A DNA stretch of 64,000 nucleotides from Psammoneis japonica (lineage: Eukaryota). Positions 28,467 through 59,331 of this stretch are shown piece by piece (within the stretch, counting starts at the first letter, position 1; the number at the start of each line of letters is the position of its first letter). Location of the stretch: NCBI GenBank assembly GCA_008632985.1, contig QPGO01000033.1:434001-498000 (forward strand). The letters run 5' to 3'. Made by a program: the position numbers and the translations under genes. Below the pieces are notes generated by a model. The model saw nothing but the letters and a program-made list of their open reading frames with translations, searched no databases and was not told where the DNA came from.

Positions 28467-29290
28467 TTTTAACCTGGACCCGCCATGGTAACTTAGGACG
28501 CTTATTGAAGGGGAACACATCGCTGCAATGCTTTTATGAAAGTGAGATTGGAAAGAATCGTATCAAAAGAATTGTGATTGAATCTTTTTGCTTTTTCGGC
28601 TTCTCCGTTCTCCTGTGACCAACTTCCTTTTTGAATTTTTAAAATCGTGTTAGTATCAGATTAACACATTTGTCGGCGGACGGGCATGCTCCCTAATTAT
28701 TAAAGTAACGGCTTAACCTCAACGGATATTATAACGGAAAAAGAGGTATCGGATAGTCGGTCTGCCAAGCCTGTCATGCATTCTTTACCGGTTGATTGAC
28801 GTTCAACGGCATCTCTCCCACGACTGAGTGTCTCGGCCGGGCGCCACCATCCACTGGCATAGACGCAACCTGTTTGACGGGCAGACAGACGAATTGCTGT
28901 GACCGCCTCAGATTCCATTTTTTTCTTTTCACGGCACCACCATGGGCCGATCCGACGACACTGTCTTGTTAACGCCGGTGCTCGACAAGAACGTAAATCT
29001 GCCAGACACCACTCGTGCTCATGACAACAAATACAGGGAAGGTTTGTCAATGCCTTTACTCTGTGACTCATGTCTCCCTTTCTAAGACAAGCAGCCTGTC
29101 ACCACTGGCACTTTTGTTTGGCCTCTCCTTCCTCCACCTGCTGCAGCGGCATGCTTTCTGATGATGCGTCGTGCTGCTGACAGCAACTGCGACAATCGAG
29201 AATGTGTGCGTTGATGTTGTGCACTGGCCTGAGTTCGACCTTGTTGATGACAAGCCAACAAACAACCAATCAACATTGACAGGTTCAAGC

Positions 29291-32200
29291 TGACAGAAAT
29301 TGAAGGCAAATGGCAAGAATTCAAACAATGACTCCTTGCTGCTGTCTAAACAGCAGATGAGTCTCCGCTCAGAGACCGTCACAGGAGCCGAAAGACGTGC
29401 AAGTCGGCATGATCGGGCTGCTGTTGTTGTTCTTGTGAGCCTTGTGGCTCGAAAGCAAACTACATCGCGCGCGAACGCGCGGAACTAAACCACACAAAAC
29501 TGTGCACGGTAAACTAAACAGCGCGCGACATTTCGCATGCACCCAAATCCTGTTCAAATCCTGTCACTCCCCAGTTTGCTTGAGGAGTCACAGAAACAGA
29601 TTCGACTTCGGATGGAATGAAGTTCCAGAACATGAGGGGGCGGAGAAGGTCCCAGATTTGGGAGCAACCCCAATGCTTGCTGAGAATGTCAGCAGGGTTG
29701 CGGCAGCCTTCGATGAAGTGGAACTCAAGGCAACCAGAGGCAATTGCCTCATGCACACGGTGGAATGACAGTGCAGTGTGTCGCTTGTGTAACTTGGAGT
29801 GCGGGATGGTGGCACTGTCTACAACCGACTTGTTGTCACCGAACATGCAACTGACACTGCGGATCGGGACGCCAAGGCAGCGCAGGGTGATGCGCAGGTC
29901 GATGATCTGCTCGACACAAGTCCTTGCGGCAACAAATTCAGACCCGCAGGTCGCAGTCTCCATGGTGGCTTGCTTCTTAGAGAACCAATCAGCCGGGAAT
30001 TTGTTGAGGAAGTGGAGCATTCCCATGACAGAGCATCCGGTGAGCATGCAATGGCACAGGTTTGCATCGACGCAGTGGGTGGCAGTGACGAACTTGCCAA
30101 GGGGCGGTGGAGCATCCTTCGGGATCATCTCTTCTGCTTCACCGCACACGGAATGCATCCATTCACAGGCCGGAGCAGGGAGATCTGAACAGTCGGGCTC
30201 TTCCGTGCGAACGCGGAGAGCGCCGTGTCGCATCTTGGAGAGGTGCCCACAGACGCGTTTGGCACGATCCAAGTGGCCTTGACGGGGTGCAGCTCGGAAG
30301 CTAGAGAGTGACATGATGGCCGTGGTGATGTCAATTCCACCAAGAGACACTGCCCATTGGAGTGAACCAACAAGGGACTGGAACTTGTGAATGCCATCGG
30401 GCTCCAGCAGCTCGGAAGTGTCCAGTTCGGGGTGGTCACCCTTCTCCAGAGGTGACAGGGCATTGGTGGTGGGTTTCTCCCCAAACAGTCGGGTGCAGCT
30501 GTCGACCATGCGCTCGATGTACTTGTGCGGAGACAGGCACAAGGTGCCGTCGGGATCCCGGGAAAAGTCGCAACCCAGATGGAACTCAATGGGTCCCGCA
30601 CCCTTGAGCTTGAACTTGCACTTTTCCGTGAGAGTGTTGACGAAAGATTGAGGGTCCTTCACAGCAATGGCGAGGTCATCCACACAAACGGCAATGCACC
30701 CACAGTGGTCGCCGTTCCTGCGCATCCAAATGTCAGGTTCGGCGTGGCAGGGGAAGAAGCCTTCAGCTCGCAGGCAGTCGGCGAAGCGCTCGTGCCAGCG
30801 GAGACCGGAGCTGCGCAGTCCATGCAGGGCCTTGTGGATGACAAGGATGTGTCCTTCGAGTTTGCCAAATTCGGGTCCGGCCACAATGTAGAGCTTCTCC
30901 TTGGTGGTGGCTTCAAGGTGGGCATTGCCAATGTCGGTGGCCCATGTCTCCAACTCGTTGAGTTCGGCCAGGAAAATCATCAGCCGAAGGCCACGGAGGG
31001 AGACCACTCCGGAGCAGACACTGTCGACAGGTACGTCCGTGAGGTGCCCATCGGCTGCGAGCAGTGCCTTGTGGCGACCGTCGTGTTTCACGTCGCACAC
31101 CAGGTGCACTTGGATCTTCTTGTGTCCCGCAGGAGGAGTGGAAGACTCGAAGGGCCCGCAGTCATGGAAGACTTCGTATTCCTCGAGTTGGTCCATCTCG
31201 AGATTAGTTGCGTCTCCCCATTTGCGGTTGCCGTTGCGTTGGTCTAGTGACATGGCGTGTTTGCAGTTCCGGGGAACTTCATGTCCGCACTTGCAGCGAG
31301 GTGCAGTGCGGAAGGAGCGAAGCTTGGCTTGGTTGGCCATGCGAAACAGCTTCTTTTGGCACCTCGCGATGGTGCGGAACCGCTTCCAGCCATCCGTGTC
31401 GAGAAGTCCGTTCTCTCGTGCACAGATGGTGCAGGTGACGGGGTCGTCCTTGGCGATGATGGCAAGAGGCTCGGACGTGATCTCCCCACTTTCCCATTCA
31501 AGCATGATGTTGTAGCTTGAGCCTTTCCAGGTTGGGTCATGAGGCTTCAGAGGTCCTTCGTGTGACATGATGCATCGAAATTTCCAAACAGCAGTGTCTT
31601 CGTCCTCTTGCGCAATGTGATTCATGATGTCGTTGCAGGCAAGGACTTCCTCGCATTTGTCGTTGTTGACAGAGCAGATGAACTTGGTGAGCTCGGGAGA
31701 TTGCCGTTCACTTTCCATTCGTGGTCTTTGACGGCCTTGACGATGCGAGCTCTGTGGCGTTGTCCATCCTCTTGTGGCTGCATGAGGAAGGTGCGTCCGA
31801 TGATGTCTTGCGGGTCGAAAACTGGCATCTTGGGTGTCCTGATCTCCCCATCAGGAGAATCGACGGGATTGTCGTCATGGCGAGATTTGATGATGGGTTC
31901 AGGTGGCTCCCCATCAGGAGGATCAAGATGCAGGTTTCGAATGGCAGGATCGGTGGCAGCGGAGCGTACGTTGGACCGGCAGAGGATCTTCTGAGTCTCG
32001 TCAGAGAGAATCTTGAAGGTCATCTGGTGGCCGACGTGCTCAGCAATGCCAACAAAGCGTCCACGCAACTCACGGGATTCGGACGGCCAATCGGAGTCAT
32101 CGAGGTGGAAGCACACGGGTTCCCACCAGTGAAAGCGAAGCAATGGGCTGATGTCTGGGGTGGAGCCAGTGAGAGTCTCGAGGGGCGTGCGCCAGTGGAG

Positions 32201-35200
32201 ACGTGGGGATGCTGCATGGTTGAGCATGAAGCACACATGCATGAGCGCCAGCAGCCATGTGTGGGCGGGCGAACCAAAACGATCCATGACAGTGTTCGCC
32301 ATGCGCTTCACGGTCTGGTGTCGACGCTCGGCAAAGTTTTGGTGTTGCTGGTGAGGCTCACTTTGCCAGCTGGAGATGAAGAGGGCTCGTAGGATCCCGA
32401 GCACTTTGTTGCTGATCTCAACTTGAGCACGGTCGCCAATGAGTTTGGATGGGGCACCACGCTCCCGGATCTGATCCTCGAGTGTGTTGACAAACTCTTT
32501 GTCCGTCTTGGTGCCGCAGACGTCAGTGACGGTAGACTCGGTGCCAACAAACAGTTGGGCGCTGGTGCAACCAGAGTCGACGGCCGGGGTGTCGGCACAA
32601 ATGGTGTCAGTGGCGATGGGTTCGTTGCGGCGGTGCACATTAAGGGCGGGGTTGGGTGATTTGCAGGCCTTCTTGAGGTGTGCACCGGCGGGCATGCGGG
32701 CGCACTGCGTGGTGCAGTCAAAAGTGCGACGGACCGCATCGGCAGGTGGGAAGCCAAAGCAAGGCCGAAGAGACTCAAAGGGGGGGTCCTTGGGCTGCAC
32801 AGTGCGCTCTGGGGGCGGAACGTCGTCGTCCTTGGGGTCAATCGAAAGTAGATGACACTCGCAGAACACGTCGTCGTTCGGAATGAGATGATCATCGAGG
32901 GCGGACGCATGATCGGCAGACAAGGAAGCGGACATGATGGTCTCGTTGACAACGACACGATGACGGCAGTTGCCGTGTTCGTCAAATGGGTTGGCAGTGG
33001 GATCGTCCTGCAGGTCAGAGATCGAGTCGCACCACTGGTCGTCATCAGTGACAGAGTGATCGAGGACGGAAGGATCCCATGTGTCATCACCGGTGAGGAT
33101 GACATGGGGCAGGGTGTCCCATTCGGCGTCAGTGCAAGGTCACATGGCAACATGAGGCAGGCCGCCCTTGATGTCAATGGGGATGACACAGCCATCAGGA
33201 GTGGCAATGCGTTGCAAGCCGTTGGGCACCTTGACAGAGCGATCGTTGACATCCTGTTTGCACCATTCGAGCTGGCCGCAGGAATGGATGGTCTTGCCCT
33301 TGCCCGTGTGTGCGTGCTGATGGAGGATGGCGATGACGGGACCACGCTGGGTCTCAATGACGGCACCAGCGGTGACAATGGGGATGTCCACCAATTGATG
33401 GTCGTCAATGCCCTGAACGTCGACTTGGCGAGAGGTGCGTGCAATGACGCGAACGTCATCGCCAGCAATGCCGCCGTTGGCCCCACGATCAACCAGAGCA
33501 CCAGTGCGTGTGGAGCGATGAGCAGAGGCAGATTGAATGACATTGTGGTTGTTGACGCGACGGCAAGTGAGGCCGTTGAGTTCCATGTCATCAGCAGAAG
33601 CTGGTGGGGTAGAGGGAGCGGCGGATGGCCCCGGTCGACCAGCATTGGGGGCTTGGTCAGGAGACAACAGACGTTGCAGATCACCGGGTGGCAGTGGCTT
33701 GCACTTGGTGAGGTGCGCCAGGATGGGATCATCCGAAGTGGCATCCACATTTGGAGCGGGGTCACCAGAGTCAGCAGGAGTTGTGTTGGACAAGTTGACA
33801 TCACCATCACTCCCAAGGCGGTGGTCGTGAAGGTTGGCCGTAACAGACTCATGGCAGTTGCTGGCTCGCGGGTTGCGGGGAGGCGGACGAGAGTGCTCAA
33901 GGATGATCGCCTTGGAGGAATGGGGCAACGAATCCCAAATCCGTTGGTGGTCGGGAGGGAGACGTTTCCATTGGTCACCGGTGAGGCTGGGACCACGGGT
34001 GCGGGCAGCATTGGCCTGAAGGACGTCAATGTCGCTGTCAATGTCGTAGAACACATCGTCGGATGGTTCCTCGGAGTGGACGTCGTGTGCGTGTGTGGCA
34101 TGTCGGGGAGCTTGAGGTGTCGTCTTGGGTTGAAACGTGCTGTCGTGTTGAGCTGCCGCGGAGAGGAGCAAGCCACAGCATTGATCGCATGTGAGGCTCT
34201 TGCCACTCTGCGTGCGATGCTGATCAGCTTGGTTCTTGACAGCACGGAGTTCCTCGACAGGGTGTGCGGCATTCTCGAGCATGACGCGCTTCTGTCCTTC
34301 AGAGAAGTGGTCACTGGCCGGGACAAGTGCCTCGTGCTTGCGCAACTGGTCTTGCCAATGAAGGATGAATCCGTGGGTTGGACCTTTCCAAGCACCATCA
34401 CCAAGATGTGCGGTGGCAAGGTGCGTGAGCAAGGTGGAGGACTCGATGGATGCGCGGGTGGAGGCGAGCGCATGCTCGGACAAGGCGCAGTGGACGGTCT
34501 GGGCGTCAGAAGACCCCACATTTTCGCGGATGAGAGCCTTGCCCTTGTCGGTGAGAAGGATGCGTTCGAAGACGGCGAACATGTGCTTTTGCTGTTCAGC
34601 AAAGAGCAGTTTGTCTTCGGGGCTGGTCGGTTTGTACGACGAGTCTAGAATGCACTCGACGTCTTGGGCACGGGCTTGTGCCACAAGTGAGGTGTGCCAA
34701 GTGTGCCACTGCTTGTCGGATTTGAGAGCCATGAAAGCGGTGGGATCACGCTTGATGCCTCGCTTGAAGTCTCGCACCGGGTCGCGTGCCTTGGTCGGGT
34801 TGGTGACATGCGGAGGTGCGAGGGGTGAGCTGCCGATGGACACAGAAGACATGCAGTCGGGGCTGAGGTGGCAGGCAAGGAACTCGTCATGCGTGAACAA
34901 CGATGAGTCATTGGCAACGTCAAGACCTTCGTGTGCTTTGACAATGTACAGACTAACTGGAGCTGCTAACATGTTCTTGTGACCGCGGGGCAAAGGGATC
35001 ACATCAGTGCCGTTGTCGCACTCAAGCGAGTCGATTTGGGACGGCATGAACGTGAACAGCTCTTGACACGAGTCCGTGCCGTCTTGGGCCAAAGCCAAAC
35101 GAAGAGGGCTCCCAGCACCTTGGGCAAGCACGGTTCCAACAACGTGCTCGAAACCATCGGTTTGTTGCTGACGAGTGAGAACCATGGTAGACAAAAGTGG

Positions 35201-36400
35201 TGTCAGGACAAGCAATTCTTGTTGGGAAGCGAAGGCAGACTTGAAACTTGGGTGAGAACAGACTTGACTTGAAACAGACTTGACTTGAAATCTTGAACTG
35301 CCTCAAAATCAGAAGTCACCGGGTTGTGCTGTCCCGTTCGTTGTTGAGTGCTAAACTTCCCATCCGGTCCGCAGGGTTGTGCCGGCACGTCCGAACCCGC
35401 AGCCAGTGGCGCTTTGGGTTGCTTGCGAGCGGAGCAGCAGGTTGCAAACCCCTGCAGGCAAGCTGACTAGAGGTGGACAAGACCCCCGAACCGTTCTCAT
35501 TTTATGTCGGTTGGATTTCCCAATCAGGCTGGCCAGTTGACGTGGGCGTCAGGCGCTGTGGACGAACGAACAAACGCGGGAAAGCACCCTTGCCCCAACG
35601 CAGGCTGTGGTCACGGCTGCTTGCTCTCACAGTCGTCCTCGTGGACCCAGCAGAACTGTGGAGCACCAGCAGTCCGGGGTAGATCAGGCACAATGGACTC
35701 GGTGTGCTTGCAGAGTGGCAGCAAAACCGCAGTCCGAAGAGTGGGTACAAGTTCTTGGCCGTGAAGATGTGTGTGTGCGCACATGTCTTCAGCGACGAAG
35801 ATCCTTGAACATGCAGGGTTCTTGACCATCAACCAATGAATGGGTGTGTCAAGGGATGAGGATCAAGGACAGACTTGGATGTGACTGTTGATGTGTGTCT
35901 TCAGCGATCAAAGGTGGCACAATCAATCCAGATGTCCAGCGGCAAGGAGACTTGACGGTGACGTTAAAAAATCCTGCCGATGCCTGGTGTTGAATGCGCG
36001 CAGACTTGCCGATGTACGTAGAACATGCAGGGAGGTCCACGCAGAATTGAAACAGCGTCGTCGGTAAATCAACGACGACGATGGCGGTTGCTCAATGGGT
36101 TGACAATGAGCAAGACTGTTGATCTGACAGAAATTGAAGGCAAATGGCAAGAATTCAAACAACAACTCCTTGCTGCTGTCTAAACAGCAGATGAGTCTCC
36201 GCTCAGAGACCGTCACAGGAGCCGAAAGACGTGCAAGTCGGCACAATCGGGCTGCTGTTGTTGTTCTTGTGAGCCTTGTGGCTCGAAAGCAAACTGCATC
36301 ATGCGCGAACGCGCGGAACTAAAGCACACAAAACTGTGCGCGGCAAACTGAACAGCGCGCGACATTTCGTGCGCACCTGAATCCTGTTCAAATCCTGTCA
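29291..36400 (-). mobile_element. Full-length Ty1/Copia (CoDi-like) LTR retrotransposon, element 1, mutated
   Basis: 276-bp LTRs 29291-29566 and 36125-36400 (TGACAG..CTGTCA); TSD CAAGC both sides; polypurine tract at ~29567-29580; order gag, PR (LVDRGANGG), IN (SEPHQQHQNFAERR), RT (DIGNAH, CVDD), RH (NPADILSK). Confidence 0.95.
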
Positions 36401-36497
36401 CAAGCCCCAATCAACATTGACAGGTTCAAGTGCCAAACTGTTGGTGTGGTGACATGACAGGCTCCAGTGCGATTGACTGGAGTGATTGGACATTCTG

Positions 36498-36865
36498 GAC
36501 GCGTTCCAGGTCCAGGTGGGACCTCGCACCACCAAACTGTGACATCCACAGTTTTTTGAATCGCATTGCATGTCGCGCACGCACATTTCTACATGATTTT
36601 GGCCAAATTTTGCATCATTTTGTTGCACAATTGTCGGGCGATCCATTCAACAACTTTTGACATTTTTTTCTTCTGTGCCATTCTTGAGTGTCCTGAGAAT
36701 GGCACAGGGCAGGCGCATTGTCCAAAACTTTGAGTGCGAACAGAGACATGTGTGCTGCAAACTCGGCCATTTGTTTGATGTTGAAGACAAATGTGTCCAT
36801 CAACCGGAGTATGAAGCACAGAGCTCGCACGTGGAATTCTGCGGGGCAAATGTCACAAAAAGTCC
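36498..36865 (-). mobile_element. MITE copy, subfamily B, split by Copia element 2 (remainder at 54199-54219)
   Basis: Starts GACGCGTTCCAGGTCCAGGTGGGAC; the other TIR is completed by cacccaggactggagcccgtc after the Copia; TSD TCTG at 36494-36497 and 54220-54223. Confidence 0.88.
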
Positions 36866-39800
36866 TGACAGGATTTGAACAAGATTTTAGCTCATCACAC
36901 ATGATTGTGTGTGCTCTCAGTTCCATGCACGTCATGTGATGCAGTTTGCTTTCGAGCCACATGGCTCACAAGAACAACAACAGCAGCACCGATGTCACGA
37001 CACCAGTCTTTCGGCTCCTGTGACGGTCTCTGCACGGAGACTCATCTGCCATTTAGACAGCAGCAAGGAGTTGTTGTTTTCTTTCACCCAGTCATCTTCA
37101 TTTTCTGTCAGATTGACAGTCTTGCTCTTTGTCACCCATTGAGCATTCATCATTGTCATCGAGAAATTTTTGACGACCCGCACCGTTGGCGGTGGAAGCG
37201 TGCATCTGCCTTCTTCACTGCTGGGTGCTGGATTAAATCCACATGTTTGGATTCATCCGACACCTCCCATCGTTGGATGCATTTGTTCAACGGATGTTTG
37301 TTTGGCCAGGAATTTCTGAATTCTCAGACATCCAAGATTCCGGATTCCTCGCAGCAGATCCTGCCAATGCTTCCACATGCGTTCATGTGCACACGACACA
37401 AATCCCTGACTCTGGCTCTGCTCTGTGCATGCCAAGTCTACCGCCTCGTATCTGCGCCAGATTGCTGGTCTTCTCCAGTCCAGCAGGGTCCACGAGGACA
37501 ACTGTGAGAGGAAGCAATTTGTGATCACAGCCTGCGTTGGGGCGAGGGTGCATTTCCCACGTTTGTTCGTCCCTCCACAGCGCCAAATTTGGCCGGCCTG
37601 ATTGGGTTGTCCAACCGATGTAAAATGAGAATGGTTCGGAGGTCTTGTCCACCTCTGGCCAGCTTGTCAGCAGGGGTTTTTAACCCGTCACTCCACTCTC
37701 AAGCAACCCAAAGCATCGCCAGCTGTGGGTTCGGACGTGCCAGCACAACTCTGTGGACCGGACAGGAAGCTTGGCACTTGACCATGAACGGGACATCACA
37801 GCCCGGCGGCTTCTGACTGTCAAGACAGTCCAAGACATCAAGTCAAGATTCAAGTCAAGTTTCAAGTTGTTTCAAGCTCACCCTCCGACTCTGGCTGGTT
37901 CCAACATCAGCCTGGTTGCAACATGGTTCTCACCAGGCAACAACAAATCGATGGCCTCGAGCACATTCTAGGCACTGTTCTGAGTCAAGCCGCAGACAGT
38001 CCATTGCGCTCCGCTCTCAACGTTGATGGAACCGATTCGCATCAGGACCTTTTCACTTTTACTCCGTTGCAATTGGATGCCCTTGTGCACAATGACAGAA
38101 CCAATCAAATGCCTTTGCCACATGGTTGCAAAGCACAGACAGCTGTGTTGATTGGCCTGTACATGGCAAAAGCGCGTGGTGGTGCTGATGTCAGCAATGA
38201 CCCTCAGTTGTTCACACAAGAGGAGTTCACCAACTGTCGTCTCAGTCCTGAGAATGTGGTGTCCCTCTCCATGGGTGCAGCACCATCTGCTCCCACTCCT
38301 GGCTTGTTGCCACCCAAACCACGTGATCCCGTGCGTGACTTTAAACAAGGCATCAAATGTGACCCACTTGCCTTCGCGCTTCTCAAGTCCGACAAACAGT
38401 GGCACACATGGCACACCTCCATCATCGCACAGGCCCGCTCCCAAGACGTCGCACGCATTCTTGACCCGACGCACAAGCCCTCTGCAGCTGAGGACAAGGC
38501 CCTGTTTGCTGAACAACAGAAGTGCATGTTTGCCGCATTCTAATGGATCTTGAAGAATGACAAAGGCAAGGCTCTTGTTCGTCAACATGTCGGCTCCTCT
38601 GATGCTCTCAAGCAGTGCATCGTGACCTTTCCAAGCATGCCCTTGCTTCTGCTCGTGCATCCCTGGAGTCCTCAAACCTTCTCACGTACCTCGCCACTGC
38701 TCGCCTTGGTGATGGCACCTGGAAAGGTTCCACTCATGCCTTCATGCTCCACTGGCAGGACCAGCTCCGCAAGTGTGAAGCTCTCATCCCGGGTGCGGAC
38801 CATTTTTCTGCTGGCCAGAAATGTGTCATGCTTGAGAACGCCACACATCCTGCCGAGGAACTCCGTTCGGTGAAGAATCAGGCCGATCAGTTCCGCGCGC
38901 AGAATGGAAAGGGACCATCTTACGAAGAGCACTGTGGACTCCTGCTTTCCGCTGCAGCACAGTGCGACAGCACGTTCGCCCCCAAGACAGCTCCTCACGC
39001 TCCTCACCGTGCCGTCTACGAACACGACCTGGTCCCTGACGACCCTGATGACGATGTGTTCTTCGACATCGACAGTGATGTTGACGTCATGCAAGCTTGT
39101 GCTGTGCAAACTCGCGGCAATTCCCTCACCAAGGAACAGTGGCATCGCATTCCGCCGGACCACCAGCGCATTTGGGACACCTTGCCCCAGTCCACCAAGG
39201 CCATCATTCTTGGCTCGCGCACCGCCCACACGGGCAACTGCCATGACTTGATGGCGGTCAACCTGCACGACCTCCGCATTGGCAGTGATGGCGACATCAA
39301 CTTGTCTGCCAACACTCACAATCTTGCATCAGCCTCGGCACAATCCGACGCTGCAGCCGATGCAGCCGATGCCAACCCCATCCTGGCTCATCTCACCAGG
39401 CACAAGCCTCTGCCAGCACCCGGCGACTTGCAACGTCTCCTGGCACCTGAACGGCCTCCTTCCGCCCATTCTGGCAAGAAACCACCTGGATCTGCACCTT
39501 CCGTCCACTCCAACGCGAAGCCCAATGACACTGACATTGAGATCAACGGCCATGAATGCCGTCGCATTGACAACCACAATGTCATCTGCTCTGCCTTGAC
39601 CCACAAGTCAACTTGCAAAGGTGCTCTCGTGGATCGTGGTGCAAACGGTGGTGTCGCTGGTGATGATGTTCGTGTCATTGCCCGCACTGGTTGCCAGGTT
39701 GACGTCCAAGGCATCGATGATCATCAACCAGTCGACACCCCCATTGTCGCTGCTGGTGGTGTCATCCGCACGCAACACGGCCCTGCCATTGCCATCCTTC

Positions 39801-42800
39801 ACCAGTGCACCCACACTGGAAAGGGGAAGACGATGCACTCTTGCGGCCAACTCGAGTGGCACAAACACGATGTCAACGATCGGTCCATCAAGGTCCCCAA
39901 TGGTCTGCAGCGCATCACCACCATTGATGGATGCGTCATTCCCATTGACATTAAAGCCAGCCTCCCGCACATCGCCATGCGCCCATGCACTGATGCCGAA
40001 TGGGACACTCTGCCGCATGTCATTCTTGCTGGTGATGACACATGGGATCCATCTGTCCTTGACCACCAGTTCACAGACAATGAGATGTGGCATGATGCTG
40101 TGTCTGACCTCCAAGACGACCCGACTGCCAACCTCTTCGATGAGTTCGGCAACTGTCGTCACCGCCATGTCATCAACAACGCCATGCTTGCAGACTCTGT
40201 CCTTGATGATCACCTGCTCCCGACATCTGATTTCTTCTGCAAATGCCATGAGCGCGAACTCAATCCCAAGGATCCCAACTTTGAGTCCCTCCGCCCCTGC
40301 TTTGGCTTTCTCCCGAAGGACACTGTCCGCCGCACTTTTGATTGCACAACGCAGTGCGCCCGCATGCCAGCCAGCACGCACCTGAAAAAGGTGCACAAAT
40401 CCCCCAACCCGGCTCTCAATGTCCACCGACACAATGAACCCATTGCCACCGACACGGTCCACTCTGACACCCCTGCCATTGACTCTGGCTGTGCCAGCGC
40501 CCAGCTCTTTGTCGGCACGGAATCTCTCGTCACTGACGTGTGTGGTGCCAAAACTGACAAAGAATTTGTCAACACCCTCGAAGACAACATTCGCAATCGC
40601 GGTGCCCCATCCAAGCTCATCAGCGACCGTGCTCAGGTTGAGATCAGCAACAAGGTTCTTGGCATCCTTCGTGCCCTCTTCATCTCCAGTTGGCAAAGCG
40701 AGCCTCACCACCAGCATCAGAATTTTGCTGAACGCCACCACCAAACTGTGAAGACCATGGCCAACACCATCATGGATTGCTTCGGGTCCCCGGCTTGCAC
40801 CTGGCTGCTCGCCCTGATGTGCGCATGTTTTGCACTCAATCACACGGCCAAGCTCCACTGGTGCACCCCCACCGAGGTGCTGTCCGGCTCTGCTCCCGAC
40901 ATCAGCCCACTCCTCCGCTTTCAATGGTGGGAACCCATGTGCTGCCACCTGGATGATTCCGGCTGGCCACCCAAATCCGTGAATTACGTGGTCGCTTTGT
41001 TGGCATCGCCGAACACGTTGGTCACCAAATGACATTTAAGATTCTTTCTGACGACACTCAGAAGATTCTCTGCTGTTCCAACGTGCATTCCGCCCGTGAT
41101 CCGTCTGCTCCAAACCTGCATCTTGATCCTCCTGACAAGAAATCTGCTGACCCTGTCATTAAATCCCGCCACGACTCCGAGAATTTGCCAGATTCGCCAG
41201 ATGGGGAGGCGATCAGGATGCCCAAAATGCCGGTCTTTGACCCTGAGGATGTCACAGGACACACCTTCCTCATGAAGCCACAAGAGATGGACAATGCCAC
41301 AGAGCCCGCATGTCAAAGCCGTTGAGGACCATGACTGGAAAATCGGAGGCAATCCTGAACTGGTCAAGTTCATTTGCTCCATCAACAATGACGAATGCGA
41401 GGAAGTCCCAGCCTGCAATGACATTGTGCACCACATTGAGCAAGAAGATGAGGACTCAACTCTCTGGAAGTTCCGATGCATCGCATCACACGAAGGACCA
41501 TTGCAACCCCATGATCCCTCTTGGAAAGGCTCAAGCTGCAACGTCATGCTTGAATGGGAGAATGGGGAATCACGTCCAAACCCCTTGCCATCATTGCCAA
41601 GGACGACCCCCCGTCACCTGCGCCAACTGCGTGCGTGAGCACGGCCTTCTAGAAACCAAAGGATGGAGACATTTTCACAAGACAGCACTTCGTCAGAAGA
41701 AGCTGTTCTGCATGGCCAACCAAGCCAAGTTGCGCTCCTTTTGCACTGCGCCACGATGCAAGTGTGGGCATGAAGTGCCACGGGACTACAAGCATGCCAT
41801 GGCCCTTGATGAGCGCAACGGCAACCGCAAGTGGGGAGATGCAACGGACCTCGAGATGACTCAACTTGATGCAAGAATTCCAGTGCTCCATCAGGACACA
41901 AGAAGATCCGGGTGCATCTCGTCTGCCGCACGATGTCAAACATGACGGACGGCACAAAGCAAGGCTTGTCGCCGATGGACACCTCACAGACACACCCGCC
42001 AACAGTGTCCATTCTGGAGTTGTGTCCCTCCGTGGTCTGCGAATGATGATCTTCCTGGCCGAACTCAATGAACTAGAGACCTGGGCCACTGACATTGGGA
42101 ACGCCTGCCTTGAAGCTGCGACCAAGGAGAAACTGCACATCGCAGCAGGCCCCGAGTTTGGCAACCTGGAAGGACACATCCTTGTCATCCACAAGGCCTT
42201 GTGCGGACTCCGCAGCTCCGGCCTCAGATGGCATGAACACTTTGCCAATTGCTTGCGTGCCGAAGGCTTCTTTCCATGCAAGGCCGAACCCGACATCTGG
42301 CTGTGCAGGAATGGTGACCACTGCGAATGCGCGGCAGTGCATGTGGACGACCCAGCCTTCGCCATGAAGGACCCCCAGGCTTTTGCAGACACCCTCACGG
42401 AGAAGTGCAAGTTCAAGCTCAAGGGCGCTGGACCGTTGGAGTTCCATCTTGGCTGCAACTTCACCCGTGACCCAGACGGCACCCTGTGCCTTGCTCCCCA
42501 CAAGTGCATTGAGCGCATGGTTGACAACCACGTGCACCTCTTTGGGGAGAAGCCTCGCACTGATGTGCTTTCACCCCTTGACAAGGGTGACCACCCTGAG
42601 CTTGACACTTCCGAATTGCTTGAACTGGATGGCATCCACCAGCTCCAATCCTTGATTGGATCCCTGCAATGGGCCGCATCTCTGGGTTGCATTGACATCA
42701 CTGCGGCTGTCATGTCCCTGTCTGGCTTCCGCGCAGTGCCCCATCAAGGCCACCCAGAGGATTCCTCTCCAAGATGCGTCATGGCGCCCTTCGAGTGCAC

Positions 42801-43266
42801 ACCGAGGAGCCCGACCATTCGGACCTCCCCAAGCCCATGTGCGATTGGGCTCAATCCATGCATGGGGAGGTGGAAGAGCTGCTCCCACAAGATGTGCCCG
42901 AGCCGCTTGGCAAGTTCATCACCACCACGCACTGCGGTCGATGCAAACTTGTTCCATTGCATGCTCGCTGGACGCTCTGTCACCGGCATCCTCCATTTCC
43001 TCAACAAGTTTCCGGCTGATTGGTTCTCTGAGAAACAAGCAACAGTCGAGACTGCCATGCATGGATCCGAGTTTGTTGCTGCAAGGACATGTGTCGAGCA
43101 GATCATTGATCGGCGCATCACTTTGTGTTGCCTTGGCGTTCCCATTCGTGAAACATGTTGCACATTTGGGGACAACAAGTCTGTTGTGGACAGTGCCACC
43201 ATCCCGCACTCCAAGTTGCACAAGCGACACACCGCCCTCTCATTCCATCGTGTGCGTGAGGCGATT

Positions 43267-46200
43267 TGCCCTGTGCACGCACTGGGCGCTGAAAAAGAAG
43301 ATGTGTTGCGACTTTGTCTTTGTGAAAATTGCAAGCCAGTTTAGAGCAGAGAAAGTGGGATCGTGCGAATGGGGAATCTTGCCAAATCCCCATTCGTTCG
43401 CATTTGGATCGCATCAAATCGATCGTGCGTTGGCATTGTGGATCGTGCGAATCAAGCCATCATGCACTGTGCACGAGTGATGTCATCGTGTGGAATCACG
43501 CTGCCATCGTGGGCCAGACGACGGGCCAGTGTGCTTCACACGGATGCTCTCTTAGCATCCTTCTGGAATTGCCCAAGACCTGGAGCCACACCCTCCTGTG
43601 GTCGTGCTTCCCAGGTGCGTGTTGACAATGCCACGTTGCCACGTGCAAGAGGCTCATGCACGGTCTCGCCGTGTTGTCCAGCAGCGAGGCACACTGCACA
43701 CTCCCCCATGATCAGGGCCGTTAAGTGACAGAATGTCTTGCTGGTGACAGGGTGCAACCTGCCGTAGATTGTGCGTGTCTGTCAGCACTCCATTCTGGGT
43801 GCGCAACATGCCGTTGTCACACACACGGACAACTCTGGCGGGTCCTGCACAGCTGTCAGAACCGCATTCAGAGGATTGTTCCTGTTTGACAAGTGCCAAT
43901 TGCCCTGCGGTGTGTTGACACTCCTTGCGTTTCTGATTTTCACGCTTGTTGTTTAAGTGGACAAGCTTCTGCTTTCTGGTTTCTATGTGCTTCCACTTGG
44001 CACGATGGGCAACAGATAAAACCGCATCGCGTCCGAAGACCAATTGCGTGGGACTTGCACGCGTGGTCGCATGTGCCGTAGCTCTAACAGCGAAGGCTGC
44101 TGCGGAGAGGATGCCACTCCATGGGTCATCTTCGTCCAGTTCCACATCCTGCACTGAAAAGGAACATGCCATGTTACCAAGTGTCTGGTGTGCACGTTCC
44201 ACCATGGCATTCGCCTGTGGATTCCGTTCACTTGTGGGTTTCTTCAAAATCCCACAGTCATTTTTAATCATCTGGCTAAATTCTGCCACAAATTCTGTCC
44301 CACAGTCATAAACCACCTGGGTTGGCCACGGACATCTGCATGGCCACGTTTGTTCCACGACGTTTGCTGCGACGTCTGCGCGTTTCGCAGACACTTCTTC
44401 AATCTCGAACCACCCGGTTGCTGGGTCAATCATTGTGACTGCCCACAATTGCAAAGTGTCCTTTCCGCGTCTTTGAATTTTATGTGGCCCTGTCACATCT
44501 GTGCATGGAGTCTCCCATGGAATTGTCTCTGCGACCTTTTCTGGTGGCTTCCCATGACGCTGCGTTCGGCGTTTTGTCTTCTGGCATTGATCGCACTTGA
44601 CGCACGTAGAATGCACCGTAGACCTCACACCAGGCCAGCAGAAGTGCTGGGCAACAGACATTTCCGCACGTGTCTCACCTGGATGACACAGTGTCTCGTG
44701 GTGCCATTCAGTTAGCGGAACCTGCAATGACTGTGGTGCTGCGATTTTGTCCTTATGACAGATTAACTGTCGTGATGACCCTCCCCCACGATGCGCGTGA
44801 ATGGAGTGGTCGGACGAGTCCTTGGCTCGTGAGAGTGGGCGCTTGTCCTTTTGTTGTGCTTTTTGAATGCGCTTGAAGCCAATGGGCAGAGATGCCTCAT
44901 CTTGAGCATCTGCATTAAAAGCTTATGCAAAGGACGACTCGATGGAGTGTCTTTCACATCCGGATTGGCCTCGGAAGGCAAGCTGGGTGCCAGCCGAAGG
45001 CGGCCAAGAGCGTCAGCGACCAGGTCATGGGTGCCCTTAACATGGCGTAATTCGGGACCGCATTCTTCGCATGTTGACCGCCACCGCATAATGCGCTCGG
45101 CATTGAACACTTTGCACGCAAGATTTTTATGATCAGCACACACAATTGTGCGATGACCAAGGAGAATCATTCGAAATTCTTTCAACATCTCCACAATGGC
45201 GAGCAATTCTCTCTCCATTGTTGCACAATTTAGTTGCGCACTGTCAAGCTTTCTGCTGTAAAAGGCGACAGGTTTGTTGTCTTGGGACATGACTGCTCCC
45301 AATTGACATTTAGAGGCATCGGCACGCATCTCAAAGGGTTTGTTAAAATCAGGATGTGACAATGAAACATCATCCGATGTCACCCGTTTGATGGTTTCGA
45401 ACGCCTCGTCTTCAACGGACGTCCACTCCCACTTGACAGTCTCGCTTGCGAGTCGTGTCAGTGGAGCCAAGACTTCAGAACGTCTCACGTGCCCTGTGCA
45501 TGCACCAGGCACTGAAAAAGAAGATGTGTTGTGACTTTGTCGTTGTGAAAATTATGAGCTGGTTTAGAGCAGAGAAAATGGGATCGTGTGAATGGGGAAT
45601 CTTGCCAAATCCCCATTCGTTCGCATTTGGATCGCATCAAATCGATCGTGCGTTCGCATTGTGGATCGTGTGAATCAAGCCATCACGCGCCATGCACGAG
45701 TGATGTCATCGTGTGGAATCATGCTGCCATCGTGGGCCAGACGACGGGCCAGTGTGCTTCACACGGATGCTCTCTTGGCATCCTTCTGGAATTGCCTGAG
45801 ACCTGGAGCCACGCCCTCCTGTGGTCGTGCTTCCCAGGCACGTGTTAACAACACTGCGTTGCCACGTGCAAGAGGCTTGTGCATGGTCTCGCCGTGTTGT
45901 CCAGCAGCGAGGCACACTGCACACTCCCCCATGATCAGGGCCGTTAAGTGACAGGATGTCTTGCTGGTGACAGGGCACAATCTGCCGTAGATTGTGCGCA
46001 TCTGTCAGCGCTCCATTCTGGACACGCAACGTGCCGTTGTCACACACACGGACAACTCTGGCGGGTCCTGCATGGCTGTCAGAACCGCATTTAGAGGATT
46101 GTTCCTGTTTGACAAGTGCCAATTGCCCTGCGGCACATTGACACTCCTTGCGTTTCTGATTTTCACGCTTGTTGTTTGAGTGAGTGAGCTTCTGCTTTCT

Positions 46201-49200
46201 GGTTTCTGTGCACTTCCACTTGGCACGATGGGCAATGGACAAAACCGCATTGCGTCCGAAGACCAATTGCATGGGACTTGCACGCGTGGTCGCATGTGCC
46301 GCAGCTCTAATGGCGAAGGCTGCTGCGGAGAGGATGCCACTCCATGGGTCATCTTCGTCCAGTTCCATGTCCTGCACTGAAAAGGAACGCACCATGTTGC
46401 CAAGTGTCTGGTGCACACGTTCCACTGTGGCATTTGCCTGTGGATTCCATTTGCTTGTGGGTTTCTTCAAAATCCCACAGTCATTTTTAATCATCTGGCT
46501 AAATTCTGCCATAAATTCTGTCCCACGGTCACAAACCACCTGGGTTGGCCACGGACATCTGCATGGCCACGTTTGTTCCACGATGTTTGCTGCGACATCT
46601 GCGCGTTTCGCAGACACTTCTTTAATCTCGAACCACCCGGTTGCTGGGTCAATCATTGTGACTGCCCACGGTTGCAAGGTGTCCTTTCTGCGTCTTTGAA
46701 TTTTATGTGGCCCTGTCACATCTGTGCATGGAGTCTCCCATGGAATTGTCTCTGCGACCTTTTCTGGCAGCTTCCCATGATGCTGCATTCGGCGTTTTGT
46801 CTTCTGGCATCGATCGCACTTAACGCACGTAGAATGCACCGTAGACCTCACACCAGGCCAACAGAAGTGCTGGGCAATGGATGTTTCCGCACGTGTCTCA
46901 CCTGGGTGACACTTGCCATTCAGTTGGCGGAACCTGCAATGACTGTGGCACTACGATTTTGTCCTTATGACAGATTGACTGTCGTGATGACCCTCCCCCA
47001 TGACACGCGCGAATGGAGCAGTCGGACGAGTCCTCAGCTCGTGAGAGCAGGCGCTTGTCCTTTTGCTGTGCTTTTTGAATGCGCTTGAAGCTAACAGGCA
47101 GAGACAGCTCATCTTGAGCATCTGCATTAAAGGCTTCATGCAAAGGACGACTCGATGGAGTGTCTTTTACATCCGGATTGGCCTCGGAAGGCAAGCTGGG
47201 TGCTGGTCGAAGGCGACTAAGAGCGTCAGCGACTGGGTTGTGGGTGCCCTTAACATGGTGTAATTCGGGACCGTGTTCTTCGCATGCCAACCGCCAGCGC
47301 GTGACGCGCTCGGCATTGAGTGCTTTGTACGTAAGATTTTTATGATCAGCACACATGATCACACGATGACCAAGGAGAATCATTCGAAATTCTTTCAACG
47401 TCTCCACAATGGCGAGTAATTCTCTCTCCGTTGTTGCACAATTTAGTTGCTTTCTGCTGCAAAAGGCGATGGGTTTATTGTCTTGGGACACAACTGCTCC
47501 CAATTGATGTTTAGAGGCATCGGCATGCATCTCAAAGGGTTTGTTAAAATCAGGATGTGACAACAAAACATCATCCGACATCACCCGTTTGACGGTTTCG
47601 AACGCCTTGTCTTCAACGGACGTCCACTCCCACTCAACAGTCTCGCTTGCGAGTCGTGTCAGTGGAGCCAAGATTTCAGAACGTCCAATCCACGTGTCGC
47701 GGTGGCAGTTCACCACACCAGTGAATGAACGCAGGTCGCGTTCATTGGTTGGGGTCGCGATTTGCTCAATGGCGTCGACTTTATCAGGTGTTGGTCGCAT
47801 TCCGTCTCTGTTGACCAGACAACCCAAGTGTTCTAATTGGGTTTGACAGAAGTGAGATTTAGTTGCGTTGACTTTTAGTCCTGCTTTCTGGACCCTCAAC
47901 AAAACTTCTTCAAGTTTGTTGAGGTGATCTTCACAGGTGCCTTTCGTCACGACGAGAAGGTCATCTAAGTGCGTTCGAACGAACGACAGATCTTCAAATG
48001 AGCCTGACATGCGTTCTTGGAAAATGTCTGGCGAACTGCATGATCCCATGGGCAATGCCTGCATCTCACACTTGCCCCACGGGAAGATGAGCGTGCAGAG
48101 CTTCTTGCCACCAGCATCCAATCGGATGTGATGATGGCCCATGTTTAAATCCAGCGATGTAGCCCACACAAAGCCTTCGAGCTTGGGTGGCATGTCTTGG
48201 ACATGAGGAATCGGGTGAGGCAATCGCTTGATCCGTTTGTTCAGCTCTCTCAAATCATTGATGAAGCGCACCGTTAAATCTTTCTTCGGCATGACAAATG
48301 ATGGAGCTGCCCATTGGGATCGGTTGACGCGTTTGAGAACACCGACACGTGCCAGGCGTTCTACTTCTTCATGCAGCACAGCTTCGTGCGCACAAGGCAC
48401 TTTGTGCGGACGAGCGTGGCATGGTTCTGCACCCTCCTTGAGTTGGGTGTGGCAGGGTTCTCCCTTCCATTCTCCTGATGTCCCATCAAATGAGGACTCA
48501 TGGCGTTTCAATGGTGCCAAAAGGTCGTTTTGTTGAACTGTGGAAAATCCAATTGCCCCTCGCGTTATGTCCTCGAGGCAGGCCGGCGCGTGCTTGGCGT
48601 CTAAAATGCGCGAAATCCGGTCGGTTTCCGAAGACAAGGCTTCTGGATCTTGAAGATAGAAGGAGGTTTCCACCGCAGCATCTACGTGCCTCATTGGCAC
48701 TTCTCCATTGACCAATGGCCACTCTGTCATCTGTTTGGAGAAGACAACATCAATGCCTTGTGTCTCCAGAATGTCACGTCCAACAATCACATCGTGCTTG
48801 CCCAACTCTCCGTTGTGTGCGTGGACGGCATGTTTGAGTTCTGCAGTTTCGGACAATTCTGGCAACCGAAATTTAACGGTGCAGTCGTTGGACGCACCAA
48901 ACGAGCCTGCTGCCACAGTCCAGTTTGTCTCAGCCATTGAATGGCTTCGCAGACGTTTGCAGTGTCGACTGTCGAGTAGAGCACTGCTGGCGCCACTGTC
49001 CAGCAGTGCCTCAATGGTTTGAGTCTTGCCCTTGCCATGTTTGGCATTCACAGCTGCAAACAAGATTGGAGCAAGATGAGTCTTTTTAACTCGTTTGCGG
49101 GATTGGCCCACAACACGTGTACGATGGCAATTCAGTTGTTCATTTGTACATTCATCCAATGCATTGAAACTGCCTGCATCGTGTCGGCCCCCTTCTCAGG

Positions 49201-52200
49201 TGTCCGAGTCTTCGGAATCACTCAAGTTGAGGTCGCGGAAGTGATTGAGCTCCTCCTCGCGGGCCTTGCGCTTTTTCTGAGCGTTGGCAAAGCACTCCTC
49301 GACCTTCAATCCGATGAGAGCATCAACATCTTCCTCATTCCGAGGTTTTGTGTCAGGCTTGCCGCCTCCGTCATTGGAATGTCCAGTCTTGACACGTTTC
49401 ACGTGGTGCTTGAGCTGACGGCAATCTTCCGCATCATGTCCACAGCCAGTCCCGTGCAGCATGCACGACTTCTGGGTGTTCCGCTGGGTCGTGATCAATG
49501 ACTCAGGATTGTCTGTTCTACGTCCCCGCTTGCGTGGAACCTCAGCACGTTGGTCCTGGTTACCTTCGGCAAGCTCGACCTGCTCGATGCGCTTGCAGAA
49601 CTGTGCAAATTCGGCGACAGCATGCGCCAACGGGTCAAAATTCTGTAGCGTCATGAACTTCTGCCATGCGTTCGGCGCACCGCACTCGAACATGTCGCAT
49701 GGTTCGTCATCAGGCAATGGTGCCGGTGTTTCTCCATCCTCCATCACGGGTGGAAACTGAGAGACACAGCTGTTAATTTCAACAGCCCTCGCGACGTGGT
49801 CACGAGCAGAAACCTCTGCGGGCTTGCGCATGAAGCGCCGCAGACAACGCTTCTGCAACAGTGCCGCCCCATGTGGGAAGACACTTTCCTTTAGCTTCGC
49901 GACGCATGCTGCGTGCGCAGCGTTGGTTTGGGATGCCTGCTTGTCAGCGGCATTGTCAAATGACGTCAGAGCATCGCCCTGTGGTGGGTCACGCATGAGG
50001 GCAAATTTCGCTGGCCCGGTCGTGATGTTTTGTCCTTCGTGCACGCGATCCACGTTGCGCAGAAAGATCAGGAGTGTCTCGCATGTAGCCGCAGAAAGGT
50101 GCGGGATGCCCATCTCGTGCGTTGGACCATCCGGATCAGTGGGGTTGTTACGCAGCTTGAACGTCTGGTGCTCACCCTGCTGCAGCTCTTTCTTCTCCGG
50201 CCATGCGAACGGAATCGGCGGCTCAACCCACTTCTTCATGGTCGTTTTAAGATTTGTCGGTCCCACCAACATTTCGTAGTTTCATTTCTGCAGATTTCGT
50301 CACCTCGCACAACATGCGGGAGCAACATTGCTGTGCCCTGTGCATGCACCAGGCGCTGAAAAAGAAGATGTGTTGCGACTTTGTCATTGTGAAAATTGTG
50401 AGCTAGTTTAGAGCAGAGAAAATGGGATCGTGTGAACAGGGAATCTTGCCAAATCCCCATTCGTTCGCATTTGGATCGCATCAAATCGATCGTGCGTTCG
50501 CATTGTGGATCGTGTGAATCAAGCCATCACGCGCCATGCACGAGTGATGTCATCGTGTGGAATCATGCTGCCATCGTGGGCCAGACGACGGGTTGGTGTG
50601 CTTCACATGGATGCTCTCTTGGCATCCTTCTGGAATTGCCTGAGACCTGGAGCCACGCCCTCCTGTGGTCGTGCTTCCCAGGCACGTGTTGACAACACTG
50701 CGTTGCCACGTGCAAGAGGCTTGTGCACGGTCTCGCCGTGTTGTCCAGCAGCGAGGCATGCTGCACACGGCAGCAGTTCACCATGCCAACAAATGAGCGC
50801 AGGTCGCGTTTGTTGGTTGGGGTTGCGATTCACTTGATGGCGTCGACTTTGCCAGGCATTGGTCGCATTCCGTCTCTGTTGGCCAGATGACCCAAGCACT
50901 CTAATTGGGTTTGACAGAAGTGAGATTTAGTTGTGTTGACTTTTGGTCCTGCTTTCTGGACCCTCAATGAAACTTCTTCAAGTTTGTTGAGGTGATCTTC
51001 ACAGGTGCCTTTCGTCACGACGAGAAGGTCATCTGAGTGCGTTCGAACGAACGACAGATCTTCAAATGAGCCTGACATGCGTTCTTGGAAAATGTCTGGT
51101 GATTGCATGGTCCCATGGGCAATGCCTGCATCTCACACTTGCCCCACGGGAAGATGAGCGTGCAGAGCTTCTTGCCATCAGCATCCAATCGGACATGACA
51201 ACAGCCCACATTTAAATCCAGCGATGCAGCCCACATGAAGCCTTCGAGCTCAAGTGGCACATCTTGGATGTGAGGAATCGGACAAGGCAATCGCTTGATT
51301 CGTTTATTCAGCGCTCTCAAATCATTGACAAAGCGTGCCGTTAAATCTTTCTTCGGCATGATAAATGATGGAGCTGCCCATTGGGATCGGTTAACGCGTT
51401 TGAGAACACCGACACGCACCAGGCGTTCTACTTCTTTACGTAGCGTAGCTTCGTACGCACGAGGTGCTTTATACGGACGAGCGTGGCATGGTTCTACACC
51501 CTCCTTAAGTTGGATATGGTAGGGTTCTCCCTTCCATTCTCCTAATGTCCCATCAAATAAGGACTCATGGCGCTTCAATAGTGCCAAAAGGTCGTTTTGT
51601 TGAACCACAGAAAATTCTATTGCCCCTCGCGTTATGTCCTCGAGGCAGGCCGGCGCGTGCTTAGCGTCTAAAATACGCGAAATCCGGTCGGTTTCCGTAG
51701 ACAAGGCTTCTGGATCTTGAAGATAGAAGGAGGTTTCTACCGTAGCATCTACGTGCCTCATTGGCACTTCTCCATTGACTAATGGCCACTCTATCATCTG
51801 TTTAGAGAAGACAATGTCAATGCCTTGTGTCTCCAGAATGTCACGTCCAATAATCATGTCGTACTTGCCCAACTTTCCGTTGTGTACGTGGACGGCATGT
51901 TTAAGTTCTCCAGTTTCGAATGATTCTGGTAGCCGAAATTTAACGGTGCAGTCGTTAGACGTGCTGAACGAGCCTGCTGCCGTGGTCCAGTTTGTCTCAG
52001 CCGTTGAATGGCTTCGCAGACGTTTGCAGTGTCGACTGTCGAGTAGAGCACTGCTGGCGCCACTGTCCAGTGGTGCTTTAATGGTTTGAGTCTTGCCCTT
52101 GCCATGTTTGGCATTCACAGCTGCAAACAAGATTGGAGTGAGATGAGTCTTTTTAACTCGTTTGTTGGGATTGGCCCACAACAAGTGTACGATGGCAATT

Positions 52201-55827: not shown

Positions 55828-55829
55828 TC

Positions 55830-56860: not shown

Positions 56861-56927
56861 TGTCGCTGTCAGTTCCTCCTGTCTGCAGCTGTGTGGTGCA
56901 ACAGCTCTTCTGAGGAAAATTGTCTTT

Positions 56928-57324: not shown

Positions 57325-57599
57325 CTTTGCAAAATTTCAAACCTGTTCCCAACACTTTATGGCGATGCTGCTTCCCCATCCTCATGCATTGTCAACTGTC
57401 AAATCTTTCCCAAATCATCACAATTGGTGATTTTTGTCATTTGACTTTGAAAACCACACACTTGGTCATGTTCATTTCAGCTCAAGTGACCAGTTGTTCA
57501 ATTTGAATTGCACAATTAAATGTCAATGACAATTTTGACATGCAACTGGATCACTGCATTTGAAACTTTCAATTGTGCAGAATCACACATGAACATTGA

Positions 57600-59300: not shown

Positions 59301-59331
59301 CTTTGCTGCTTCTTTCCACCAAAACACCAAA

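Follow-up and report, generated by a model that had tools for sequence, protein, structure and literature searches.

Which process can make the two long terminal repeats (LTRs) of one retrotransposon, identical at integration, differ almost exclusively at dinucleotides that read TA, TG, CA or CG? The question is raised by Copia#1, a Ty1/copia element at 29291–36400 in a 64,000-nucleotide stretch of the diatom Psammoneis japonica (GenBank assembly GCA_008632985.1, contig QPGO01000033.1, positions 434,001 to 498,000 of the forward strand); this whole stretch is called the window here. A sequence-only reading of the window had noticed such differences and attributed them to TpA changes made after integration on both strands. 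Its observation was confirmed and its interpretation is supported, with a sizeable component of CpG decay added. We found that repeats in the window have undergone a post-integration, DNA-level, strand-symmetric and repeat-restricted conversion of TpA to TpG or CpA, with a preference for T-A-pyrimidine (T-A-Y), over a background of CpG decay.

Paired LTRs of four insertions

Copia#1 lies on the minus strand, with its 5′ LTR at 36125–36400 and its 3′ LTR at 29291–29566, where the sequence-only reading had placed them. Both are 276 nt long with TG...CA ends (TGACAG...CTGTCA), stand in direct orientation and are flanked by a perfect 5-bp target-site duplication, CAAGC, at 29286–29290 on the left and 36401–36405 on the right, as expected of Ty1/copia LTRs. 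The internal region (29567–36124, minus strand) contains a match to the copia-type reverse transcriptase (RT) domain RVT_2 (Pfam, E=4.6e-23), and about 1800 amino acids align with intact polyproteins of 1850–1930 amino acids that have a C-terminal RVT_2; an integrase was not detected by Pfam in the mutated open reading frame (ORF). Just outside the target duplication, a 24-nt stretch without TpA occurs at 29266–29289 and again, 24/24 identical, at 36407–36430. Because this exact repeat lies outside both duplications, the insertion site is either a short tandem duplication or the product of a more complex integration event.

The rest of the region was resolved by self-comparison, LTR alignments and boundary letters, giving four elements in all. 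Copia#2 is on the plus strand, with a 5′ LTR at 36866–37110, an internal region at 37111–43262 that is broken at 43267 by a Gypsy element, and a 3′ LTR at 53950–54193 that differs from the 5′ LTR at 22 of 244 sites; its target duplication, AGTCC, is at 36861–36865 and 54194–54198. The outer Gypsy element occupies 43267–53754 on the minus strand within Copia#2 (LTRs 43267–43698 and 53324–53754, 38 of 431 sites differing, duplication GATT). Nested within it on the same strand is the inner Gypsy element at 45490–50765 (LTRs 45490–45921 and 50334–50765, 15 of 432 sites differing, duplication CACG), and Pfam found RVT_1, RNase H and integrase domains in the Gypsy copies, the inner one having all three. 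The second Copia pair and the four Gypsy LTRs named in the earlier reading are therefore all present, the latter as two nested pairs with intact target duplications. The nesting order matches LTR divergence, which runs from 9.02% through 8.82% to 3.47% from the outermost to the innermost element. Given the intact target duplications and the element structure, all four LTR pairs are single bona fide insertions, and the changes that separate their LTRs arose after integration, as had been proposed.

Of 276 aligned sites in the Copia#1 LTRs, 16 are different: 15 transitions and the one transversion that had been reported before. Every one of the 15 transitions falls at a pyrimidine-purine (YR) step. 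The motifs quoted in the sequence-only reading were all recovered in the alignment: aacTAcat/aacTGcat, ggTAaacTAaac/ggCAaacTGaac, aaTGact/aaCAact, gcaTGat/gcaCAat and ccCAaat/ccTGaat. Across the four pairs we counted 91 substitutions in 1383 aligned nt, of which 86 were transitions, 82 of them at YR steps, leaving only 9 changes outside such steps. These substitutions group into 70 difference events: 21 adjacent doubles with TG in one LTR and CA in the other, 6 of TA vs TG, 3 of TA vs CA, 17 of CG vs TG, 14 of CG vs CA, 4 transitions outside YR steps and 5 transversions. Sorting LTR differences by dinucleotide class had been suggested as a check on the TpA claim, and TA-type events are indeed abundant (30 of 70, doubles included). 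When 91 transitions were placed randomly in the same LTRs in 5000 simulations, doubles had a mean of 1.72 and a maximum of 8 (21 observed) and changes outside YR steps had a mean of 41.9 and a minimum of 28 (9 observed). The pattern of LTR differences is far beyond chance.

A TG/CA double could descend from either TA or CG, and the sequence-only reading, which favoured TA, was right for most doubles. At CpG sites, 62 were intact in both LTRs and 31 mutated in one, for a per-LTR loss probability of 0.20; these counts predict 1.94 CpG-derived doubles compared to the 21 observed. With CpG loss explaining about 2 of the 21, the doubles descend from TA and not from CG. At TA sites, 5 were intact in both LTRs and 9 mutated in one, which fits a loss probability of ~0.81 per LTR, and the hazard at TpA is ~7 times that at CpG.

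What the earlier reading had overlooked is the CpG class itself, which accounts for 6 of the 16 substitutions in the Copia#1 pair: two CA/CG singles, two CG/TG singles and one TG/CA double. This double, at 29536–29537, is one of four in the pair and is CpG-derived, because other copies from the sample described below read CG at 29537–29538 in 99% of the depth. Events of CG vs TG or CA make up 31 of the 70, and 12 of the 15 in Gypsy LTRs polarise as CG to TG/CA. We regard these 31 events as ordinary CpG to TpG/CpA decay layered under the TpA process, of the kind that presumed CpG methylation would produce. The polarity fits the known CG methylation of diatom transposable elements, for which DNMT5a is described in the available part of that source (PMC9998398). 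CpG decay nevertheless explains none of the TpA loss.

Direction, strand and context of the changes

The reading would have failed had TG/CA proved ancestral and TA derived, and conserved tyrosines point the opposite way. When the RT ORF of Copia#1 was compared with 16 intact relatives at 60–70% identity, the 27 conserved Tyr columns read Y in 4, C in 18, H in 4 and F in 1, while no Cys or His column of these relatives had turned to Tyr. Even the catalytic YVDD motif reads CVDD. We then considered the whole polyprotein, taking positions with Tyr in at least 5 of 8 relatives. In Copia#1, 63 such positions comprise 34 TGY, 15 CAY, 6 TAC and 0 TAT codons, and in Copia#2, 55 positions comprise 27 TGY, 15 CAY, 4 TAC and 0 TAT. 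In both copies together 93 of 118 conserved Tyr are now Cys or His, 10 are still TAC and reverse changes number 0. The two Copia elements have the same pattern though they lie on opposite chromosome strands.

Among the 240 listed protein relatives, Tyr content is 2.3–5.3% and Cys ~1%, compared to 0.5% Tyr and 4.9% Cys in the Copia#1 query. The top scorers, P0241 and P0001, are on Mb-sized contigs and have normal Tyr content. One relative, P0293, comes from another assembly (a contig of 10361 nt, 63% identical) and has Cys (7) or His (5) in 12 of the 27 Tyr columns. This could be an element from a different organism or sample that has been hypermutated in part, and it hints that the process occurs elsewhere too.

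Related DNA agrees with the proteins. In every one of the 80 related metagenome loci, the TpA observed-to-expected ratio (o/e) lies within 0.49–1.02 (median 0.69) and the GC content within 0.44–0.54, whereas the two Copia copies have a TpA o/e of 0.05–0.13 and a GC content of 0.55–0.59. The metagenome scan keeps the best-matching copies and so is biased toward intact ones, making it a baseline and not evidence of absence. Three of these Copia loci (L016, L003, L020) have a CpG o/e of 0.23–0.44 and are enriched in TG and CA with normal TpA, the pattern that ordinary decay of methylated CpG leaves where the TpA process is absent.

Contigs of four sequencing runs of one sample (X1–X4) were also aligned to 29200–37200. 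Run X1 has 16026 contigs at a likeness of at least 80% and 3622 at a likeness of at least 99%; transitions account for 509 of 575 variable places. Among the 40 of 583 variable places listed for the runs, 4 are in an LTR and none is in 36125–36400. In ~11 of these 40, other copies read TA where Copia#1 has TG or CA, as at 31062 (100%), 30882 (96%) and 31283 (87%), and in ~17 of the 40 other copies read CG where Copia#1 has TG or CA. Among the four copies of each LTR family, some sites mix TA, TG and CA (A2 columns 82 and 377; A3 columns 237 and 242), and A2 column 115 shows TG/CA in both pairs. In the Gypsy LTR, invariant CG remains at 14 of 116 YR sites and invariant TA at none. Because the RT proteins, the whole polyprotein, related DNA and other copies of the same sample agree, a change from TA to TG/CA is the supported direction.

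The raw Tyr codons suggest a strand bias, with a TGY:CAY ratio of ~2:1 (61 vs 30) in the two Copias, and a sense-strand bias from RNA-level or transcription-coupled editing was considered and rejected. The bias is gone in context-matched counts, and the T-A-Y preference explains the ratio. Tyr codons with a preceding G, which form the palindrome GTAC, give 19 TGN vs 17 CAN, and lost GTAC words have left similar excesses of GTGC and GCAC (27.1/32.3 in Copia#1, 37.2/30.0 in Copia#2). Among palindrome-derived tetranucleotides, noise left only GTAC usable.

The context preference is clear in word survival. Measured against the 80 metagenome relatives, NTAN words that carry TAT on one strand or both have a survival of 0–2%, compared to 10–30% for other words; measured against the genes in the window, the lowest survival is 0.9% (ATAT) and the highest 69% (TTAA). 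A comparison within single sites drew on 61 TA-vs-TG/CA sites in the LTR pairs and between the two Gypsy copies: T-A-Y on the hit strand with T-A-purine on the spared strand occurred in 25 cases and the reverse in 5. With context matched, hits are equally frequent on the two strands; T-A-pyrimidine is preferred, T-A-T most strongly, and the earlier claim of hits on both strands, made from the TG/CA doubles, is borne out. As it is strand-symmetric and separates the LTRs of one insertion, the process acts on integrated double-stranded DNA, not on RNA or complementary DNA (cDNA).

TpA depletion in the repeat blocks

TpA depletion in the window is confined to its repeat blocks, and the genes are spared. 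The right-hand block, at 28900–64000, is poor in TpA and rich in TG and CA, with a TpA o/e of 0.05–0.40 per 2 kb, and a second depleted repeat block at 1–3950 has 0.04–0.06 per 2 kb throughout. Over most of the repeat blocks the ratio is 0.04–0.13 (0.07–0.13 inside Copia#1 and 0.05–0.08 inside Copia#2 up to the nested Gypsy), and it is 0.17–0.40 in the younger Gypsy part. The compact gene region between them (~4–28.7 kb), which includes DAGAT, HSP70, an RPE65-type oxygenase and proteasome alpha-2, has a TpA o/e of 0.40–0.75. The proteasome alpha-2 protein shares 80% identity with that of Cyclophora tenuis and matches Cylindrotheca and Nitzschia next, which places the host among diatoms. TG and CA reach an o/e of 1.4–2.2 in the repeats (1.4–1.9 where TpA stands at 0.05–0.13), and CpG has 0.65–0.87 there vs 0.9–1.1 in the genes. 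The edge at ~4000 is sharp, with TpA o/e going from 0.00–0.18 to 0.75 within 250 nt (250-nt steps, 2751–4000).

At the other edge, TpA o/e is 0.38 and then 0.21 over 28800–29290, with TG and CA raised, so the depletion starts 300–500 bp outside the Copia#1 LTR, on its left. The window contains no second copy of this sequence, which is either what remains of an old repeat or a flank into which hypermutation has leaked, as happens in repeat-induced point mutation (RIP). The sequences at 1–3950 and 54200–64000 are unclassified repeats nearly without TpA, and no Pfam domain was found among 9 ORFs scanned in them. The unclassified repeats of both blocks and 36501–36865 have families in common: 1512–1868 resembles 55466–55821 and 56962–57320, and 1967–2249 resembles 36594–36867 and 59831–60089.

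Several consequences follow for how such elements are read. LTR divergence over the four pairs is 6.58% overall vs 0.65% outside YR steps, and LTR-based ages here are consequently overstated ~tenfold, with TA-derived divergence saturating; the warning in the sequence-only reading that LTR dating would overestimate age was justified. A single substitution rate underlies ages based on LTRs or on identity, according to the available part of a recent preprint (bioRxiv 10.1101/2025.10.24.684338). In the youngest pair (3.47%), TA is intact in both LTRs at 1 site, mutated in one at 3 and present as doubles at 3, next to 5 CpG events and 1 other change, so the TpA process outpaces all other change.

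Although the Copia elements are dead, frames of 500–780 codons stay open in them, including out-of-frame and antisense ones, and only 1–2 stops occur in ~1800 aligned Copia codons, because TAA and TAG have been erased and not recreated. In Copia#1, frames of 598–778 codons are found out of frame and antisense, for example at 32308–34644 (minus strand) and 32852–34648 (plus strand). ORF length is no sign of element activity here, and gene callers would emit spurious Cys/His-rich proteins. Repeat masking based on composition would likewise misjudge these GC-raised repeats.

Explanations and precedents

We consider it likely that this conversion is a post-integration, DNA-level, repeat-restricted TpA to TpG/CpA hypermutation driven by an enzyme as a targeted genome defence. 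After integration, LTR retrotransposons and other repeats undergo TpA to TpG or CpA change, that is, A:T to G:C at the A of either strand, near saturation at an estimated ~80% of TpA sites per LTR (a pooled estimate) and several-fold faster than the accompanying CpG decay. By rough arithmetic on this one assembly, the local TpA rate is a few hundred-fold over that of sites outside YR steps. The most likely chemistry would be DNA adenine deamination, in which hypoxanthine pairs with C, by an ADAT/TadA-like deaminase, and the defence would resemble that of Bigelowiella natans. That a T must precede the A is reminiscent of tRNA adenosine deaminases, whose substrate is U33-A34. Alternatively, an oxidised or otherwise modified thymine at TpA may mispair with G; oxidised thymine at TpA mispairing with G would yield the same letters. 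The 13 ORFs scanned from the window's gene region include no deaminase.

The closest precedent is B. natans: in its mutation-accumulation lines, integrated DNA of giant viruses and virophages acquires TpA to TpG/CpA changes at ~6e-7 per site per generation, ~1000 times background (Mettrop et al., bioRxiv 10.64898/2026.01.13.699255). In the available part of that preprint, the changes are nearly only A to G or T to C at TpA, giving TpG or CpA by strand, are limited to foreign or integrated DNA at orders of magnitude above background, and leave a long-term trace of TpA depletion with CpA/TpG enrichment. In the window we likewise see A:T to G:C change at TpA acting on integrated DNA. The same source reports an enrichment of reverse transcriptase and DDE domains among coding sequences poor in TpA, notes that ADAR prefers U before the edited A, and proposes an ADAT2-like enzyme as a hypothesis (bioRxiv 10.64898/2026.01.13.699255).

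There are also differences. The host there is a chlorarachniophyte (a rhizarian) and here a diatom (a stramenopile), and the targets there are giant-virus and virophage inserts and here LTR retrotransposons and unclassified repeats. TpA o/e is 0.45 in the viral region as against 0.05–0.13, near saturation, here. Timing comes from mutation-accumulation lines there and LTR pairs here, and coexistence with CpG decay is seen here. The available main text mentions neither a wider sequence context, such as the T-A-Y (TAT) preference found here, nor diatoms, retrotransposons or LTRs (bioRxiv 10.64898/2026.01.13.699255). We found no report in the literature of TpA loss in diatom transposons, and Maumus 2009 (PMC2806351), the founding paper on diatom Copia elements, makes no mention of hypermutation, dinucleotides or deamination.

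Two further kinds of system offer comparisons that hold only in part. RIP in ascomycete fungi is a DNA-level, post-integration burst of transitions restricted to repeats, bound to a dinucleotide context and acting on both strands, and it too puts transposons out of action and leaves composition skewed within sharp borders. Its C to T changes at CpA (or CpG) leave a TpA excess and low GC in repeats. The polarity here is the opposite, as RIP makes TpA from CpA/TpG and lowers GC, whereas in the window TpA is destroyed, CpA/TpG is made and GC is raised. ADAR and APOBEC also cause deamination-type transitions clustered in retroelements, but they act on RNA or pre-integration cDNA, on one strand, and leave the LTRs alike, while here the LTRs differ and the strands are equal; APOBEC moreover changes C to T or G to A, not A to G. 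The argument of the sequence-only reading against ADAR-type editing withstood these comparisons, as the LTRs differ at 30 TA-type events and sense-strand T to C is common, with CAY at 30 Tyr positions.

The competing explanations can be weighed against these results. It is unlikely, in our view, that the changes reflect passive, context-specific mutability, with TpA in silenced repeat chromatin damaged or poorly repaired (through T-A photoproducts or lost transcription-coupled repair) and neither enzyme nor defence involved. Such damage would fit the restriction of the changes to non-genic repeat blocks, no enzyme is pinpointed by the present data, and diatoms live in high light. It is harder to reconcile with the loss of ~80% of TpA per LTR when just 9 of 1383 positions changed outside YR steps, with a pace several-fold above CpG decay in the same DNA, or with the youngest pair, in which 6 of 7 scorable TA-derived sites are already mutated in at least one LTR. 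In B. natans only some of the lines carry the signature, and the authors, in the available part of the preprint, take this as a sign of regulation (bioRxiv 10.64898/2026.01.13.699255). A sequencing or assembly artefact, in which a modified base at TpA (A or T) is miscalled as TG/CA, seems very unlikely, though no record states which platform produced the assembly or runs X1–X4, the best run contains only 0.58 of the window's sampled 31-mers, and 2 of the 40 listed places (30059 and 33533) are without a contig that supports the window's letter. At these two places (G>A and T>G, respectively) every run contig differs from the window, and they are possible assembly errors or strain differences. 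Set against an artefact are the thousands of run contigs that match at 80–99% with mostly transitions at their variable places, contigs of up to 315 kb, which imply accurate reads, and the window's letter at 31062, present at about single-copy depth (49694.2 minus 49628.2). Cys or His in 12 of 27 Tyr columns of P0293, from a different assembly, and the same signature called in the B. natans mutation-accumulation lines (bioRxiv 10.64898/2026.01.13.699255, available part) also tell against miscalling.

The two remaining explanations have already been refuted in their full form, and we give them scarcely any credence. Pre-integration editing would involve ADAR-like A-to-I change on element RNA, or cDNA deamination, inherited by later copies. 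The raw Tyr counts do favour sense-strand A to G at ~2:1, and 4 of 5 2:2 TG/CA patterns among the Gypsy LTRs split the elements and not the LTRs of one element, so that some changes were inherited from source copies. As a sole cause, however, it is refuted by the LTR pairs, which were identical at integration and yet show 30 TA-type differences; the 2:1 bias vanishes with matched context (19:17, and GTAC), and RNA editing is unable to give the sense-strand T to C behind the CAY codons. Still less probable is cytosine deamination only, by which 5-methylcytosine decay at CpG and a RIP-like CpA to TpA change would make TA derived and the doubles CpG-born. CG is involved in 31 of 70 events and is the polarised ancestor at 12 of 15 Gypsy LTR sites, ~17 of the 40 listed run places read CG in other copies, one Copia#1 double is CpG-derived, and diatom transposable elements are CG-methylated (PMC9998398, available part). 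As a whole explanation it fails on the depleted TpA (0.05–0.13 vs 0.69 in relatives), the raised GC (0.55–0.59 vs 0.44–0.54), the 93 of 118 Tyr turned to Cys/His with 0 in reverse, and the 1.94 of 21 doubles that CpG predicts. Cytosine deamination remains as a second, ordinary component.

Some points weigh against targeted TpA hypermutation as the explanation, or against its reach. Among the 240 listed protein relatives the signature is seen in P0293 only, and there partially, and it is found in 0 of 80 metagenome relatives, a sample biased toward intact copies. Runs X1–X4 are of one sample, from which the assembly itself may have been made, and do not count as independent confirmation; the listed places are a small share of the variable ones (40 of 583); the off-record platform and the two places without contig support count here as well. 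Polarity at individual LTR sites rests on indirect evidence. Parsimony polarises three TA/TG singles as TG to TA (A2 columns 75 and 368; A3 column 187) and 3 of 15 CpG-variable Gypsy LTR sites as TG to CG, and we assume that these contrary sites are repeated hits at hypermutable sites. Finally, the mechanism is inferred, and the enzyme, the base modification and the timing are all hypothetical.

With that said, post-integration TpA hypermutation invites a more specific, and more tentative, proposal. It is possible, though we would not call it probable, that diatoms have an 'inverse RIP', in which a chromatin- or repeat-guided enzyme would deaminate adenine, or modify thymine, at T-A-Y in double-stranded nuclear DNA and so quickly strip fresh retrotransposon insertions of nearly all TpA. 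This would be an ancient defence across stramenopiles, alveolates and rhizarians (SAR), held in common with the chlorarachniophyte, and the T-before-A requirement would be inherited from tRNA deaminases. A natural A-to-G editor of double-stranded DNA with T-A-Y specificity would interest both the genome-defence and base-editing fields.

Diatoms and LTR retrotransposons are a new setting for a process that has been described once before, in one preprint, as far as the available part of that preprint goes. The loss of TpA kills the elements, in a mirror image of fungal RIP. If confirmed, this would be a natural A:T to G:C genome-defence mutagenesis of nuclear DNA in a second major algal lineage, directed at the commonest class of diatom transposons.

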